DNA from: an uncultured Actinomycetes bacterium
GTDB lineage: Bacteria > Actinomycetota > Actinomycetes > Streptosporangiales > Streptosporangiaceae
Reading direction: 5' to 3'
DNA: 64,000 nucleotides
Assembly (NCBI GenBank): GCA_963760405.1
Contig: CAVXCV010000002.1
Location: 679,413-743,412 of the forward strand
Shown here: in pieces, positions 18,622-32,670 of the stretch
Layout: each line of letters opens with the position of its first letter
How positions within the stretch are numbered: the first letter of the stretch is position 1
Position numbers and translations under genes: made by a program
The notes under the pieces: model-generated
Database searches by the model: none
What the model saw: the letters and a program-made list of their open reading frames with translations, nothing else
Told to the model about the DNA's origin: nothing

Positions 18622-18639
18622 GACCTGCTACTTCACTCG

Positions 18640-18712
18640 TAGCCCCGACCGGATTTGAACCGGCGCTACCGCCTTGAGAGGGCGGCGTCCTGGGCCACTA
18701 GACGACGGGGCC
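18640..18712 (-). tRNA. tRNA-Glu (anticodon CTC)
   Basis: Manual cloverleaf. Acceptor GGCCCCG/CGGGGCT. D arm GTCT..GGAC. Anticodon stem CCGCC/GGCGG with loop CTCTCAA. T arm GCCGG-TTCAAAT-CCGGT. No encoded CCA. Confidence 0.9.
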
Positions 18713-19720: not shown

Positions 19721-19785
19721 ACCTGGGCAAAGACGAGGGCCACCGGCCGGACCCACGGAGGGACCCTGCCTGTGACCCTGACCTG

Positions 19786-19857
19786 CTGGGGTACCAGGAC
19801 TCGAACCTAGACTAACGGGGCCAGAACCCGTCGGGCTGCCAATTACCCCATACCCCA
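19786..19857 (-). tRNA. tRNA-Gln (anticodon CTG)
   Basis: Manual cloverleaf. Acceptor TGGGGTA/TACCCCA. Anticodon stem ACGGG/CCCGT with loop TTCTGGC. T arm CTAGG-TTCGAGT-CCTGG. Confidence 0.9.
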
Positions 19858-20751: not shown

Positions 20752-21567
20752 TTAGTCGCGGTTGACGACGGTGTTGGTGAGGGAGCCGATGTTCTCGATA
20801 CTCACGGACACCTCGTCGCCGTCCTCCAGCGGCCCGACCCCGGCCGGTGTCCCGGTGAGCAGCACATCGCCCGGCAGCAGCGTCATCACCGAGGTCACGA
20901 ACTCCACCAGCGCGGGCACGTCGTACAGCATCTCGGAGGTACGGGCCCGCTGCCGGGTCTCACCGTTGACCACCGTGGTGAGCAGCAGGTCAGCCGGGTC
21001 AACGTCGGTCTCGATCCACGGCCCGAGCGGGCAGAACGTGTCGAATCCCTTGGCCCGGGTCCATTGCCCGTCCCGGGCCTGCAGGTCCCGCGCGGTGACG
21101 TCGTTGGCGCAGGCGTAACCGAAGATGACCTCGGCTGCCTGGGCCGCGGGCACCTCCCGGCACAGCCGGCCGATGATCACGGCAAGCTCACCCTCGTAGT
21201 CAACCCGCTGGGTGAGCTTGACCGGGTAGGTGATCTGGTCCCGGTCGCCGACCACCGCGGTGGACGGCTTCAGGAAGAGCACTGGCTCCCCCGGCGGCTC
21301 CGTGCCCATTTCCCGGGCGTGCTCAGCGTAGTTCCGGCCGACCGCCACCACCTTGCTGGGCAGTACCGGGGCGAGCAGCCGCACCTCGCCGAGCGGGTAG
21401 GTGGTGCCGGTGAACTGGACGCCACCTTTGCCGGTGCCGAACGGATGGCCGCGCAGCTCGGCGATCACTGTCACCCCGGGCGTGCCACCAGCGGCCCCGT
21501 CGGCCTGGGCTTCCCCGACAACGCCGTAAGCGACCTCTTCACCCCGGGCGTACCTCGCGATGCGCAT
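20752..21567 (-). CDS. fumarylacetoacetate hydrolase (FAH) family protein
   Basis: VVAVGRNYAEHAREMG, ...YEGELAVIIG and GDVLLTGTPAGVG motifs. Confidence 0.9.
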   Translation of the reverse strand: MRIARYARGEEVAYGVVGEAQADGAAGGTPGVTVIAELRGHPFGTGKGGVQFTGTTYPLGEVRLLAPVLPSKVVAVGRNYAEHAREMGTEPPGEPVLFLKPSTAVVGDRDQITYPVKLTQRVDYEGELAVIIGRLCREVPAAQAAEVIFGYACANDVTARDLQARDGQWTRAKGFDTFCPLGPWIETDVDPADLLLTTVVNGETRQRARTSEMLYDVPALVEFVTSVMTLLPGDVLLTGTPAGVGPLEDGDEVSVSIENIGSLTNTVVNRD

Positions 21568-21632
21568 CGCTCAACCTCACCACTGAGAGTTAGCTGATCC
21601 AGCCTGGGCGATCCCGCTGCCACGGTAGCCCG

Positions 21633-21878
21633 CTACTGCAGGTAGCCTTCGACCTCCGACACCGGGCGGCCGGTGGCGGCGGTGGGATCCTCGCCGTACT
21701 CACGCCGCGCACGGCGCTGGCGCAGCAGGTCCCAGCACTGGTCCAGGGCTTCTTCGGCGGACCGCAGCTGGGCCCGTTCCTCGTCGGTGGACAGCTGGCC
21801 GGCGCCGACCTTCTCGCGCAGCTCGTGCTCGGTGCGGATCAGCTCATCGATACGGCCGAGGATCTCCTTATCGTCCAT
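21633..21878 (-). CDS. DUF2630 family protein
   Basis: MDDKEILGRIDELIRTEHELR...LDQCWDLLRQRRARREYGEDP, a small conserved actinobacterial protein. Confidence 0.8.
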   Translation of the reverse strand: MDDKEILGRIDELIRTEHELREKVGAGQLSTDEERAQLRSAEEALDQCWDLLRQRRARREYGEDPTAATGRPVSEVEGYLQ

Positions 21879-21962
21879 GGGTCTTACCGTAAGGGGAACC
21901 GGCCCGTGCGCCGACCCGGGGCCGGCCTGCGGGCGGGGACGGTGATCACTCCCGGGACAGGC

Positions 21963-23570
21963 CTAGCTCTGCTCGGCCGGCAGGTGACCGGCCCGGAGCA
22001 GCGCGTAGGTGACCGCCTCGGCCAGCGCGTGCCAGGAGGCGGCGATGATGTTCTCATCCACGCCCACGGTGCTCCACGCCCCGTCGGCCGCACCGGTGCC
22101 GTCGCTCGACTCGATCAGCACCCGGGTGACCGCCCCGGTGCCGTGCGAGCCTTCCAGGATGCGCACCTTGTAGTCGGCGAGCTCCAGCATGGCCAGTTCC
22201 GGGTAGAGCCGCTCCAGCGCGAGGCGGAGCGCGTTGTCGAGCGCGTTGACCGGCCCGTTGCCCTCCCCGGTCGCGACGATCCGCTCGCCCTTGGCGTGCA
22301 GCTTGACGGTGGCCTCACTGACCACGTCGCGGCCGGCCCGCTGCTCCACGATGACCCGCCACGACTCCACCCGGAAGTGGCGCAGCGGCTCGCCCGCGAG
22401 CTCGTCACGGAGCAGCAGCTCGAACGACGCGTCCGCGGCCTCGAACGTGTATCCGCGGGCCTCCAGTTCCTTGACCCGGTTGACCACCCGGCCCACCGTG
22501 TCCTTGTCGCCGGACAGGTCGTAGCCGAGCTGCTTGCCCTTGATCTCCACCGAGGCGCGGCCGGCCATGTCGGACACCAGCATGCGCATGTCGTTGCCCA
22601 CGACGGCGGGGTCGATGTGCTGGTAGAGCATGGGGTCCACCTTGACCGCGGAGGCGTGCAGTCCCGCCTTGTGCGCGAACGCGGAGAACCCGACATACGG
22701 CTGGTGGGTGCTGGGCGTGACGTTGGTGACCTCACTGATCGCGTGCGCGACCCGGCTCATCTCGGCCAGGCAGCCGTCCGGCAGCACGGTGCGGCCCTTC
22801 TTCAGCTGGAGCCCGGCCACGACGCTGAACAGGTTGGCGTTGCCCGCCCGCTCGCCGTATCCGTTGGCGCAGCCCTGCACGTGGGTGACCCCGGCGTCCA
22901 CCGCGACCAGGCTGTTGGCCACCGCGCAGGCGGTGTCGTCGTGGCAGTGGATGCCGAGGCGCGCGCCGGTGGACGCGGCGACCGCGGTCACCACGTCACC
23001 GAGCTCGCCGGGGAGCATGCCGCCGTTGGTGTCACAGAGCGCCACCACGTCCGCGCCAGCCTCGGCGGCCGTCCGGACCACCTCGAGCGCATAGGCCGGG
23101 TCGGACCGGTATCCGTCGAAGAAGTGCTCCGCGTCCAGGAACACCCGCTGGCCTTCAGCGCGCAGGTGACTGACGGTGTCCCGGATCATCGCCAGGTTCT
23201 CTTCCAGGCTGGTGCGCAGGGCCAGCCGGACATGCCGGTCGTGACTCTTGGCGACAAGAGTCACGACCGGCGCCCCGGACTCGCGCAGGGCGGCGACCTG
23301 GGGGTCGTCGGCCGCCTGCACGCCGGGCCGGCGGGTCGCGCCGAACGCGGCGAGCTGCGCGTGCCTGAGGTCTAGTTCGGTACGGGCGCGCCGGAAGAAC
23401 TCGGTGTCCTTGGGGATCGCCCCGGGCCAGCCGCCCTCGATGAAGCCAACGCCGAACTCGTCGAGCCGGCGCGCGATGGCCAGCTTGTCGGCGACGCTGA
23501 GGGTCAGCCCTTCCTGCTGGGCCCCATCGCGCAGCGTGGTGTCGTAGACATGGAACACATCGTCGGGCAT
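21963..23570 (-). CDS. cimA: citramalate synthase (LeuA/CimA family)
   Basis: MPDDVFHVYDTTLRDGAQQEGL..., a HMGL-like domain and a LeuA-dimer C-terminal domain. Start taken at the ATG at 23570. The longer track ORF to 23642 runs into the terminator. Confidence 0.85.
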   Translation of the reverse strand: MPDDVFHVYDTTLRDGAQQEGLTLSVADKLAIARRLDEFGVGFIEGGWPGAIPKDTEFFRRARTELDLRHAQLAAFGATRRPGVQAADDPQVAALRESGAPVVTLVAKSHDRHVRLALRTSLEENLAMIRDTVSHLRAEGQRVFLDAEHFFDGYRSDPAYALEVVRTAAEAGADVVALCDTNGGMLPGELGDVVTAVAASTGARLGIHCHDDTACAVANSLVAVDAGVTHVQGCANGYGERAGNANLFSVVAGLQLKKGRTVLPDGCLAEMSRVAHAISEVTNVTPSTHQPYVGFSAFAHKAGLHASAVKVDPMLYQHIDPAVVGNDMRMLVSDMAGRASVEIKGKQLGYDLSGDKDTVGRVVNRVKELEARGYTFEAADASFELLLRDELAGEPLRHFRVESWRVIVEQRAGRDVVSEATVKLHAKGERIVATGEGNGPVNALDNALRLALERLYPELAMLELADYKVRILEGSHGTGAVTRVLIESSDGTGAADGAWSTVGVDENIIAASWHALAEAVTYALLRAGHLPAEQS

Positions 23571-23634
23571 TGGTCTCGTCCGTCCCTTGTGGCTATCTGC
23601 TGCCTGGCTGTGGTGCCTGTCGTCGCCGCGTCCG

Positions 23635-23746
23635 CAAAACAAAAGACCCCTCGCAACATGCGAGAGGTCTGCGCGTCGGCATGCGGCCTGGCCGCCCTAA
23701 CTTAGGTGCCGACGCGCCCGCCGATAATAATCCGGCCGAACGTCAT
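23635..23746 (-). promoter_or_regulatory. candidate Ile-codon leader peptide plus terminator (attenuator) upstream of cimA
   Basis: Minus-strand ORF 23746-23702 reads ATG ACG TTC GGC CGG ATT ATT ATC GGC GGG CGC GTC GGC ACC TAA (MTFGRIIIGGRVGT). An 11-bp hairpin GCGCGTCGGCA/TGCCGACGCGC lies at 23671-23717. A terminator hairpin lies at 23645-23669, followed by UUUUGUUUUG. Confidence 0.5.
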
Positions 23747-23858
23747 GACAGCAAGTGTGCCACACCCCAGGACCGCGCCGTGTCGGAACCCCCGATCAGT
23801 GATCACGGAGCGGACACACGGCCGGTACCCGTGCGGTGCCGGCCGCCCCGCGAGACCC

Positions 23859-24974
23859 TCAGCAGACCTTGTAGACCCAGCCGTGCGGATCGGGCCGGCT
23901 CCCGTACTGGATGCCGACGAGTTCCTCGCGCAGCCGCATGGTCACCGGGCCAGGGGTGCCGTCGCCGATGACCCACTCGCCGGTAGCGCTCTTGACCTTG
24001 CCCACCGGGGTGATCACCGCGGCGGTACCGCAGGCAAACACCTCGGTCAGCTCCCCGGATGCGCAGCCGGCCCGCCACTGATCCACCGAGATCCTGCCTT
24101 CCTCGGTGGGGAAGCCGAGGTCCGGACCGAGCTTGAGGAGGGAGTCGCGGGTGATTCCGGGCAGCATGGTCCCGGTCAGTGCGGGCGTCATGATCCGCGC
24201 CTGCGGGCCTGAGCCGTAGACGAAGAACAGGTTCATCCCGCCCATCTCCTCGACCCACCGGCGTTCCACCGCGTCCAGCCAGACCACCTGGTCGCAGCCG
24301 TTGTTCACGGCCTGGATCTGGCCGGCGAAGGCGGCCGCGTAGTTGCCGCCGCACTTGGCCTCGCCGGTACCGCCTGGCGCGGCCCGGGTGTACTCGGCGG
24401 ACAGCCAGACGGACACCGGCCGGATCCCGCCGCTGAAGTAGGCGGCGGCCGGCGACGCGATGACCGTGTACAGGTACGACGACGAGGGCTGGTTCACGCC
24501 GAGCCCGCGCTGCGTGGCGATCATGAAGGGCCGCAGGTAGAGGCTGTGCCCCTCGGTGGTCGGGACCCAGCCGCGGTCCTGGCTGACCAGCAGCTCGATG
24601 GACCGCAGAAAGGCCTGCTCCGGCAGTTCCGGCATGGCCAGCCGGACCGCGGACCGGTTGAACCGGGCTGCGTTGGCCTGCGGCCGGAAGGCCACGATGG
24701 GACCGCCCGCCTGCCGGTAAGCCTTCAGGCCCTCGAAGATCTCCTGCGCGTAGTGGAAGACGGAGGTGGCCGGCTCCAGCATGATCGGCCCGTAACTCTC
24801 CAGCCTCCCGTCGTGCCAGCCCTCCTCCGCGGTCCACCGGAGCGTGACCATGTGATCAGTGAATACCTGCCCGAATCCCGGGCTCGCCAGGATCTGGTCC
24901 CGCTGCGCCGCCGCAATGGGGTCAGCACTGGCGCGGACGTCGAAAGCGATCTCGGTGCTCGGGCTTGCCGTCAT
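23859..24974 (-). CDS. ilvE: branched-chain amino acid aminotransferase
   Basis: FTDHMV..., FHYAQEIFEGLKAYR and class IV aminotransferase length. ATG at 24974 preceded by AAGAGAGGA. Confidence 0.9.
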   Translation of the reverse strand: MTASPSTEIAFDVRASADPIAAAQRDQILASPGFGQVFTDHMVTLRWTAEEGWHDGRLESYGPIMLEPATSVFHYAQEIFEGLKAYRQAGGPIVAFRPQANAARFNRSAVRLAMPELPEQAFLRSIELLVSQDRGWVPTTEGHSLYLRPFMIATQRGLGVNQPSSSYLYTVIASPAAAYFSGGIRPVSVWLSAEYTRAAPGGTGEAKCGGNYAAAFAGQIQAVNNGCDQVVWLDAVERRWVEEMGGMNLFFVYGSGPQARIMTPALTGTMLPGITRDSLLKLGPDLGFPTEEGRISVDQWRAGCASGELTEVFACGTAAVITPVGKVKSATGEWVIGDGTPGPVTMRLREELVGIQYGSRPDPHGWVYKVC

Positions 24975-25201
24975 CACAGGTCCTCTCTTTCCCCGGCATG
25001 GCCGGGTCTCGCGGACGGGGCCCCGTTGCCCCGCCAGGGCGGCGCCACAGCGGGCCACCGCACCGCACTCTTATTCTCCCCGCCCGCAGCCGGGGCTGAT
25101 GTCCCGCCCGCCGCGCCAAGCCGCGCAGCGGGTGTCTCACCGCAGGCGCGCCCGCAGGCCGGCCTGCGGGGCGCACCAGGCGGGCCCGGCAGGGCCGCGC
25201 C

Positions 25202-26248
25202 CTAGCCGGCTACTCGCTCGGCGATGTCGTCGCCGATCTCCGGCGTCACCCGGGCCGCCCAGGCGCCCTGGCGCTCCACCAGGTCGTCGGCCACGGCCTG
25301 CTCGATCCGGGCGGCTTCCGCGGCCAGGCCCAGGTGCTGGCAGAGCATGGCCGCGGACAGGATCGCCGCTGTCGGGTCGGCCTTCTGCTTGCCGGCGATG
25401 TCTGGCGCGCTGCCGTGCACCGGTTCGAACATGCTCGGCGCCGTCCGCTCCGGGTTGATGTTCCCGCTCGCGGCGAGCCCGATGCCGCCCGCCACGGCCG
25501 CACCAAGGTCGGTCAGGATGTCACCGAACAGGTTGTCGGTGACCACCACATCGAACCGCTCCGGCTGGGTCACCAGGTACATGCAGGCCGCGTCCACGTG
25601 ACAGTAGTCCACGGCGATGCCGGGGAACTCCTGGGCGACCGCCTCCATCGTGCGGTGCCACAGGTCTCCGGCGTAGGCCAGCACGTTGGTCTTGTGCACC
25701 AGGGTCAGCTTGCGGGCTGACCGCTCGGCCGCGCGGGCAAAGGCGTACCGCACCACCCGGTTCACCCCGAACGCCGTGTTCAGGCTCTCCTGGGTGGCCA
25801 CTTCCTCGGGGGTGCCCTTGCGCAGCACCCCGCCGGCGCCCGCGTACGGGCCCTCGGTCCCCTCCCGGACCACCAGCATGTTGACCAGCTCCGGCCGGAC
25901 ATCAGCCAGCGGCGTGGCCACGCCCGGATAGAGCCGGACCGGGCGCAGGTTGACGTACTGGTCCAGCTCGAACCGGAGCCGGAGCAGCAGACCGCGCTCC
26001 AGCACGCCGCTGGGCACGGTCGGGTCGCCCACTGCGCCGAGCAGGATCGCGTCCTGGGCCCGGATTTCTTCCAGCACGGAATCAGGCAGCGTCTCGCTGG
26101 TGCGGTGCCAGCGCTGCGCGCCGAGATCGTAGCTGGTGTCGTCGATGGCGATATTGGCGGCCGCGAGGACCTTGAGCGCCTCGGTCACGACCTCAGGGCC
26201 GATGCCGTCGCCGCCGATCACCGCGAGCCTGATCGCAGAAGATGCCAT
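25202..26248 (-). CDS. leuB: 3-isopropylmalate dehydrogenase
   Basis: [14 protein letters not shown]..., [25 protein letters not shown]. Confidence 0.95.
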
Positions 26249-26675
26249 GCGCGTACCTTACTGGGCAGCTGCCTTGACTGACTGGCCTCCGTTATCCCGC
26301 CGGTCGAGGGCTACCTGGAGCGCGGCCGCCGCAGGCGCGGCAGGCACGGCGCGGGCCGCAGGTTCGTCACGGAGGTCACGGAAGTCGGGGAAATCACCAT
26401 GGTCAGCGGCGTCGCCGCGCTGATTCCACGGGTACATGTCATACACGGCCTGGTCTCCGGTGCTTCGTCATTCCTGGTGGGCGGACTTACGGCCAGCACC
26501 GCTAGCCGTAGCGGGTGGCCGGCCTGCCCTGATCAGGCCCCGCTACGGCTAAGGATGGATACGAAGCGCCACATATTGTTGGACATCCTAGTACCTAGAC
26601 CGGCGGCTGTCGCCTGTGGAACGGATCTGTCTCGCATCCTGAGACAGATCCGCTGGACAGGGTGGTGGTCTCGAG

Positions 26676-32552: not shown

Positions 32553-32670
32553 CAACAAAAAACCCTCGGCGCCAGAAGGCGGGCGAGGGTAGGCGCGCAG
32601 GTAGCTGGCTCAATCAGCTACTTGCGCGCCTGGTGAGTACGAGAACGTAGTGCACGAGCACGGATATCAC
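32553..32670 (-). promoter_or_regulatory. ilvB leader peptide and transcription attenuator
   Basis: Minus-strand ORF 32670-32614 reads GTG ATA TCC GTG CTC GTG CAC TAC GTT CTC GTA CTC ACC AGG CGC GCA AGT AGC TGA ([18 protein letters not shown]). A 16-bp hairpin lies at 32592-32630. A terminator CCCTCG..CGAGGG plus UUUUUUGUUG lies at 32553-32589. Confidence 0.65.

Follow-up and report, generated by a model that had tools for sequence, protein, structure and literature searches.

Leader anatomy at the cimA locus

Within the window (the entire 64,000-nucleotide stretch of an uncultured Streptosporangiaceae genome analyzed here), cimA occupies positions 21963 to 23570 of the minus strand and, reading from an ATG at 23570, encodes a citramalate synthase of 535 amino acids. 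In the pyruvate route to isoleucine, CimA catalyzes the first step. The product scores 630.7 bits against the TIGR00977 model (cutoff, 450), and every isopropylmalate synthase model scored it below that model's own cutoff. Upstream of cimA, on the strand that they share, are ilvE, leuB, and serA.

Between ilvE and cimA lies a leader whose ORF, MTFGRIIIGGRVGT (minus strand, 23702 to 23746), comprises 14 codons, including the ATG at 23746 to 23744, and ends in a TAA at 23704 to 23702; the end of ilvE is 112 nt upstream, on the same strand. Three consecutive isoleucine codons, ATT ATT ATC (23723 to 23731), are the putative regulatory codons. A 5-nt spacer, GGCGG (23718 to 23722), separates the last of these from hairpin P1 (23671 to 23717), an 11-bp stem with a GCGCG/CGCGC clamp at its base and perfect pairing between its two arms, GCGCGTCGGCA (23717 to 23707) and TGCCGACGCGC (23681 to 23671). 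In the folded leader, the loop of P1 holds two small nested hairpins and the stop codon of the leader ORF. The base immediately after P1 is the first base of an intrinsic terminator hairpin, T (23644 to 23670), leaving a gap of 0 nt between them. T, called by a terminator scan, consists of 12 bp formed by AGACCTCTCGCA (23670 to 23659) and TGCGAGGGGTCT (23655 to 23644), of which seven are G-C pairs and one is U-G, closed by a TGT loop and followed by the U-rich tract UUUGUUUUG (23635 to 23643; in full, TTTGTTTTG from 23643 to 23635). The terminator and its U-tract lie 66 nt before cimA and constitute the sole terminator-like site that the scan returned within positions 21500 to 26500. As a whole, the leader folds with a z score of -4.5 relative to shuffled sequences.

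These are the features that a first-pass annotation of this DNA had described, and each was recovered: the 14-codon minus-strand ORF with ATT ATT ATC, placed about 175 nt upstream of cimA (the ATG-to-ATG distance is 176 nt), the perfect 11-bp hairpin, and the adjoining second hairpin, whose only flaw is a U-G wobble, followed by the U-tract. It also remarked that the genome avoids codons ending in A or T; for isoleucine, five flanking genes use ATC 80 times and ATT once, making the ATT ATT of the leader exceptional here. By chance, the window should contain three adjacent isoleucine codons 0.17 times per strand; they were observed twice on each strand.

An in-frame TTG within the U-tract (minus strand, 23640 to 23642) lengthens the cimA ORF to 559 amino acids (21963 to 23642). 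The alignment of orthologues and the TIGR00977 match both favor the ATG at 23570, and hence the 535-residue product, as the probable start of cimA. Automatic gene callers can pick the TTG, reporting 559 residues instead of 535 and drawing the coding sequence over the U-tract.

Conservation across actinomycete cimA loci

The genome set consisted of 80 cimA loci from species-representative genomes, 63 of them from actinomycetes. A simple scan for a short ORF with two or three adjacent isoleucine codons (II or III) and a T-run 46 to 57 nt past its stop codon found leaders upstream of cimA at about 45 to 46 of the 80 loci, in Streptosporangiales, Streptomyces, Catenulisporales, Propionibacteriales, Micrococcales, Pseudonocardiales, Motilibacter, and metagenome-assembled genomes (MAGs) of Sporichthyaceae and Mycobacteriales. 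Their common layout is a run of at least two isoleucine codons, a spacer with a modal length of 5 nt (sometimes 8 nt), a P1 clamped by GCGCG, 0 to 1 nt, a terminator of the form (A)GACCUC(YC), and a U-tract. The gap between P1 and T is 0 nt in 41 of 46 loci and 1 nt in the other 5, and the isoleucine codons never fall within P1. Leader ORFs range from 9 to 20 codons, and the two to three adjacent isoleucines are their sole conserved residues; the rest of the peptide present in the window is not conserved in orthologues, whose in-frame start, isoleucine run, and stop all are. The stop codon overlaps the clamp (as UAG-CGCG) in 21 of 46 loci and lies within P1 in 25. Among the folded leaders, the interior of P1 is hypervariable both in length (22 to 88 nt) and in sequence, whereas terminators from different orders share the conserved sequence (A)GACCUCYC.

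Thirty-seven leaders were aligned (A1), and a covariance model (R1) was built on the alignment. The invariant columns of A1 are the A and T of the last two isoleucine codons, the clamp on each of its strands, portions of T, and the T-run, which is present in all aligned leaders. Over P1 and T together, 96.4% of the cells are paired, and compensatory changes occur in 12 of the 21 pairs. The 10 pairs of P1 (96.8% of cells paired) divide into 5 invariant ones, which form the clamp, and 5 with compensatory changes, and 7 of the 11 pairs of T are likewise compensated. None of 500 shuffles performed as well, and registers slid along the alignment paired in only 40 to 58% of cells. R1 matches directly upstream of cimA at 52 of the 63 actinomycete loci, 16 of which were outside the seed; the element is absent at the remaining 11.

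Several leaders depart from the uniform isoleucine run. Those at L019, L148, and L130 have a single isoleucine beside threonine (..CITP*, ..TITEQ), and a rare mixed-codon class (L039, L041, and L043) carries IVI, LI, or LIL; both kinds of variant may reflect drift, or tuning to threonine or to other branched-chain amino acids. One Streptomyces carrier has the leader MLSFATIIGSRRAGPQ. In Acidimicrobiia, R1 recovered related leaders that stand not directly before cimA but before leuB in a leuB-ilvE-cimA arrangement (L078, 784 to 864; L074, 759 to 836; L073, 873 to 951; L063, 965 to 1045), with peptides such as MTPPVIIIP, MNRSEHLVGIIH, and ..VVVAIG.

Association of the motif with cimA and with isoleucine codons

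Metagenome contigs were scanned with a pattern made up only of the clamp and the terminator, with neither isoleucine codons nor cimA in the query. The scan yielded 120 loci, 115 of which had enough downstream DNA to be assessed, and cimA was immediately downstream of the motif in all 115. Just upstream of the motif, at least two adjacent isoleucine codons were present in 102 of 105 distinct loci, and the other three had a single isoleucine codon only (I-T variants). Between the last isoleucine codon and the clamp, 82 loci had 5 nt, 16 had 8 nt, 3 had 4 nt, and 1 had 2 nt. Orthologous leaders that combine at least two adjacent isoleucine codons with a terminator, which the first-pass annotation had suggested looking for, were thus clearly conserved in two independent sets, at 52 of 63 genome loci and 102 of 105 metagenome loci.

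These associations bear on the reading under which the hairpins serve only to terminate the upstream ilvE transcript and the isoleucine-rich mini-ORF arose by chance. The arrangement in the window, with the end of ilvE so close upstream on the shared strand, counts in favor of that reading, and the first-pass annotation had raised it as a caveat. However, the gene directly upstream is something other than ilvE in 36 of 45 orthologous leader loci, and the motif invariably precedes cimA (115 of 115 metagenome loci). The joint conservation of isoleucine codons, start, stop, and spacing is also unlike a chance mini-ORF, and the element is missing from loci, in Planktophila and elsewhere, at which ilvE and cimA are truly contiguous. 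Because T travels with cimA whatever lies upstream (ilvE in only 9 of 45 cases), the caveat falls away; synteny refutes this explanation, and we assign it a negligible probability.

At L017, L022, L024, L025, L027, L028, L035, and L060 (Planktophila, related MAGs, and a few others), ilvE and cimA are contiguous or overlapping, in the order serA-leuB-ilvE-cimA, and have no leader. The absence of the leader from contiguous ilvE-cimA loci implies that the attenuator is dispensable where cimA is cotranscribed.

Codon usage sets the leaders apart from the genes that they precede. In the metagenome leaders, the 272 isoleucine codons comprise 140 ATT, 132 ATC, and no ATA. In the genome set, leaders contain 56 ATT and 55 ATC codons, as opposed to 9 ATT and 661 ATC codons in the cimA genes (P = 1e-44), a 75-fold enrichment of ATT over cimA usage; the rare ATT accounts for 50% of isoleucine codons in leaders versus 1.3% in the adjacent cimA. 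Third positions restricted to T and C, an in-frame start and stop, and enrichment for a rare codon are the signatures of a translated sensor.

A predicted leaderless promoter

Comparison among loci revealed an extended -10-like promoter box, TGTGG-CACACT (minus strand, 23754 to 23764), with 7 nt between the end of its hexamer and the leader ATG. In 37 of 46 loci, the leader start codon is preceded by such a box (TGTGG-CAnnnT; more generally, G-N-(C/T)A-NNN-T) at a distance of 6 to 10 nt, or of 13 nt in a single locus, and the spacing is 6 to 7 nt in 27 of these 37. With the -10 box at this distance, transcription is predicted to start on or beside the AUG or GUG, i.e., to give a leaderless transcript, and the geometry of such a promoter accounts for the missing Shine-Dalgarno (SD) sequence, since none is needed. 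All eight of the leader peptides mapped in Streptomyces lividans are leaderless (PMC8079986). The first-pass annotation was therefore right that no clear SD precedes the leader ATG, but as an objection to translation the point loses its force, given a conserved -10 box (37 of 46 loci) that implies a leaderless transcript. Together, the -10 box at a leaderless distance and the coding-type variation of the codons argue for translation of the leader ORF.

The same data weigh on the proposal that the leader is an untranslated RNA element that binds a protein or ligand, or that the ATTATTAT run is itself a -10 box and the ORF is incidental. A promoter scan does call CTGTCA-16-TATTAT across the isoleucine codons, and the sequences of P1 and T are unusually conserved (GCGCG and GACCUC), as might be expected of a binding site. 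But the AT-rich run has a strict 3-nt periodicity, with only T or C at third positions. In every case, a start codon and a stop codon share its frame, the former at a leaderless distance from another, conserved -10 box and the latter at or inside P1. Variants with ATCATCATC are devoid of TA-type -10 features. The interior of P1, variable in sequence and spanning 22 to 88 nt, is unlike an aptamer, and no Rfam family matched the leader. We consider this proposal very unlikely as a whole, and we reject its second form, the ATTATTAT run as a -10 box, given the codon periodicity and the conserved frame.

Two further elements recur near the leader promoters. The published 15-bp motif of NdgR, an IclR-type regulator of branched-chain metabolism, is matched about 15 to 60 nt upstream of some leader starts; the match at L015 (approximately 2830 to 2845), TTCCACCCCGTGGAC, is complete (15 of 15), and scores of at least 13 occur in 10 of 46 loci versus 1.4% of shuffles, which suggests that in some lineages cimA is under dual control by a protein and an attenuator. 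The promoter region in the window has no clear match to this motif. In addition, a (C/T)GAGA(C/T) box recurs 32 to 34 nt upstream of the -10 hexamer, just above the -35 region (e.g., in L003, L005, L008, L012 to L016, L021, L046, and L061), and is palindromic near cimA in L055 (TGAGACAACTTGTCTCA), L037, and L033; it is absent from the leader promoter in the window.

Search for an antiterminator

Ribosome-masked constrained folds of full and partial transcripts, together with comparisons of arm duplexes against shuffles, returned no conserved helix that competes with T. Whether the ribosome is modeled at Ile1, Ile3, or the stop codon, T has a pairing probability of 0.96, and it stays in the minimum-free-energy fold, also when the clamp is masked. 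Across the family, the best duplex between the 5' arm of T and upstream sequence has a mean z score of +0.44, no better than that of shuffled arms, and alternative partners of the 3' arm, with z scores of about 0, are no better than chance. Manual checks of an extended P1, of pairing between N5 and the U-tract, and of a P1-loop "decoy" of the T 5' arm (seen in a few Micrococcales) found none of them conserved. Hence the structure mutually exclusive with the terminator that the first-pass annotation had envisaged did not materialize in any modeled ribosome state. The only structure that changes with ribosome position is P1, which shares no nucleotide with T: its modeled pairing falls from 0.98 when Ile1 occupies the A site to 0.88 to 0.50 when Ile3 does, and to 0 at the stop codon.

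These results leave the classical three-structure attenuator unlikely, despite its being the textbook logic and the explanation proposed for the ilvBNC leader of Corynebacterium glutamicum (PMC11857589). In that scheme, P1 would be both the 1:2 anti-antiterminator and a pause hairpin, and a ribosome stalled at the last isoleucine codon would melt the clamp, whose freed 3' arm would join the 5' arm of T as the antiterminator. On the assumption that the ribosome extends 12 nt beyond the first A-site base, placing Ile3 in that site does leave the clamp half open, and masking the clamp brings out a small GCGcAG/CUCGC hairpin in about 60% of sequences. But this mini-hairpin is weak, and in Nonomuraea and Micrococcales it loses a pair (G to A) without compensation in the invariant clamp, indicating that it is not under selection; we rejected it as a candidate. 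Moreover, the T 5' arm has no better-than-chance partner upstream, T persists as the minimum-free-energy structure under clamp masking, and in variants with an 8-nt spacer, Streptomyces among them, the clamp is out of reach of the stalled ribosome. Finally, as many as about 70 nt can separate the stop codon from P1's 3' arm, too far for a terminating ribosome to mask "segment 2."

Proposed mechanism of attenuation

Considered together, the sequence evidence makes it very likely that the element is an isoleucine-sensing leader-peptide attenuator of cimA. The first-pass annotation had put this forward as a candidate, and the attenuator reading stands on the conservation of the element (52 of 63 and 102 of 105 loci) and its compensatory changes; what the analysis did not support is the classical three-helix mechanism, for which no competing helix was found. 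The best explanation, and a likely one, is that cimA has a promoter of its own and is controlled from there by a transcription attenuator that is mediated by the ribosome and specific for isoleucine. Such an arrangement would most likely switch cimA on only when isoleucine is scarce.

The helicase site of the ribosome lies about +11 from the first P-site base, and the spacers of frameshift signals are 5 to 9 nt long. Given this geometry and the 5- or 8-nt spacing, a ribosome waiting for Ile-tRNA would have the clamp immediately in front of its mRNA entrance, and the next translocations would have to open the clamp. A transcript starting at or next to the AUG would be bound by a 70S ribosome, which would translate the leader with RNA polymerase still on it. 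When Ile-tRNA is ample, the ribosome would clear the isoleucine run, be obliged at once to unzip the clamp, and halt at the stop codon, which overlaps the clamp or lies inside P1; with P1 open, T would fold freely, and transcription would end before cimA. When Ile-tRNA is scarce, the ribosome would wait at the isoleucine codons, the spacer would keep the clamp just outside the mRNA entry site, and P1 would remain closed. Closed P1, with no linker between it and the 5' base of T, would then prevent T from completing its basal pairing within the RNA exit channel, resulting in read-through into cimA. Because P1 is closed with the ribosome at the isoleucine codons and open with the ribosome at the stop, the closed form would track starvation and the open form sufficiency.

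The weakest link in this chain is the steric step, in which closed P1 blocks the basal pairs of T. We infer it from the geometry of the exit channel and from the fact that P1 and T abut without a linker and share no nucleotide, and we advance it tentatively; a literature search found no direct precedent for steric exclusion between two abutting hairpins. Doubtful, although conceivable, is the broader notion that the cimA element, and probably the ilvB leader too, represents an attenuator without any antiterminator helix, in which unzipping of the clamp licenses termination. In that reading, P1 may also act as a pause hairpin that synchronizes the ribosome and the polymerase.

Relation to known attenuators

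The closest relative in the window is the ilvB leader (minus strand, 32554 to 32649), which R1 matches with about 25.2 bits (E = 1e-4), placing its Val-Leu regulatory codons, spacer, clamp, and terminator all in register; the first-pass annotation had noted this mirrored layout. The ilvB leader folds with a z score of -6.1. Its clamp is GGCGCGC, with the GCGCG beginning 5 nt after the last regulatory codon and the P1 stem 3 nt after, and P1 abuts the terminator, ACCCUCG..CGAGGGU followed by U6, without a gap.

Like the ilvB leaders of actinobacteria (C. glutamicum ilvBNC, Mycobacterium tuberculosis ilvB1, and Streptomyces ilvL), the cimA leader combines a short ORF of the leaderless type, branched-chain codons, a hairpin, and a terminator with a U-tract (PMC1262725, PMC10272879, PMC11857589, PMC13236596, PMC8079986). 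It also shares with them the C-terminal peptide motif G-R-R-A/V-G, which is the translated clamp (in Streptomyces, MRTRILVLGKRVG). Unlike them, it precedes cimA rather than ilvB(N/H)C, its regulatory codons are for isoleucine only (II or III, bar the rare IVI, LI, and LIL) rather than mixed I/L/V, and it has no detectable counterpart of the antiterminator that overlaps the terminator in published ilvB models. In the M. tuberculosis ilvB1 leader, changing LVVI to AAAA abolishes induction, and the antiterminator of the model is given the same polarity as is proposed here for closed P1 (PMC13236596). As summarized in PMC1262725, mutation of the candidate regulatory codons of the Streptomyces coelicolor ilvB leader had no effect (Craster 1999), a result that, to the extent of that summary, we counted against the isoleucine-attenuator reading of the cimA leader.

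More distant systems share part of this logic. The mycobacterial polycysteine attenuators of cys operons (bioRxiv 10.1101/834739; PMC1262725) use, as is proposed for the cimA leader, a leaderless small ORF in which consecutive codons for one amino acid sense its supply; unlike the cimA leader, they are reported to have no obvious intrinsic terminator. The T-box leaders of ilv, leu, and COG0119 genes in Bacillota serve the same end: by means of a premature terminator, they make genes of branched-chain amino acid synthesis, among them those of the LeuA/CimA family, responsive to tRNA charging. They do so without a leader peptide, through direct binding of uncharged tRNA (PMC12452182). Rfam searches at gathering and E-value thresholds, covering the window, both leaders, and 20 loci that lack the cimA leader, yielded neither a T-box nor any other relevant family. 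In the enterobacterial attenuators (trp, leu, ilvGMEDA, ilvBN, his, and thr), as in the cimA leader, a run of codons for the end product, including rare codons, precedes an intrinsic terminator situated before the first structural gene. The leu leader, for example, uses rare CUA codons. The enterobacterial leaders, however, have an SD sequence, carry their regulatory codons within segment 1, and rely on 2:3 and 3:4 helices that overlap, whereas the cimA leader is predicted to be leaderless, its codons sit at a set distance of 5 or 8 nt before the first hairpin, and its hairpins abut without sharing nucleotides.

At gathering thresholds, the only matches to Rfam 15 in the window are two tRNAs; the best subthreshold hit on the cimA leader is to an unrelated ctRNA (15.8 bits), and the ilvB leader likewise matches no family. 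A 2005 comparative study (Seliverstov) reported actinobacterial attenuators at ilvB, trp, cys, and leuA, with no conserved structures for other amino acid pathways (PMC1262725), and the list of leaders in S. lividans has no cimA leader (PMC8079986). In the accessible literature, including Naville and Gautheret 2010, we found no description of a leader or attenuator of cimA, citramalate synthase, or SCO5529. The cimA leader therefore appears to be a new, isoleucine-specific addition to the branched-chain leader-peptide attenuators of actinobacteria, absent from Rfam 15 and from the accessible literature.

Implications

The element offers evidence of a regulatory kind, which does not depend on homology, that the function of this paralogue in the LeuA family is the synthesis of isoleucine and not of leucine. 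It also indicates that the pyruvate/citramalate route is isoleucine regulated across much of Actinomycetota, with Acidimicrobiia placing the related leader ahead of leuB-ilvE-cimA. With about 170 examples and a working covariance model, it constitutes a curatable family of RNA leaders and leader peptides that neither Rfam 15 nor the published actinobacterial attenuator lists include. With a rigid geometry and no antiterminator, it would make a clean system for asking how the position of a ribosome reaches an intrinsic terminator in leaderless actinobacterial transcripts, and the switch is relevant to the engineering of strains that produce isoleucine or citramalate.

Other features of the neighborhood

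An imperfect GC-rich hairpin, GGCCGGCACC-gcacg-GGTACCGGCC (minus strand, 23820 to 23844), lies 15 nt past the ilvE stop codon and is not followed by a U-tract. It may be the 3' structure of ilvE itself, located upstream of the leader promoter. Downstream of cimA and the gene for a fumarylacetoacetate-hydrolase-family protein with which it is paired are genes for tRNA-Glu(CTC) and tRNA-Gln(CTG) (minus strand, 18639 to 18712 and 19785 to 19857), and two tRNAs likewise lie downstream of cimA in L030.
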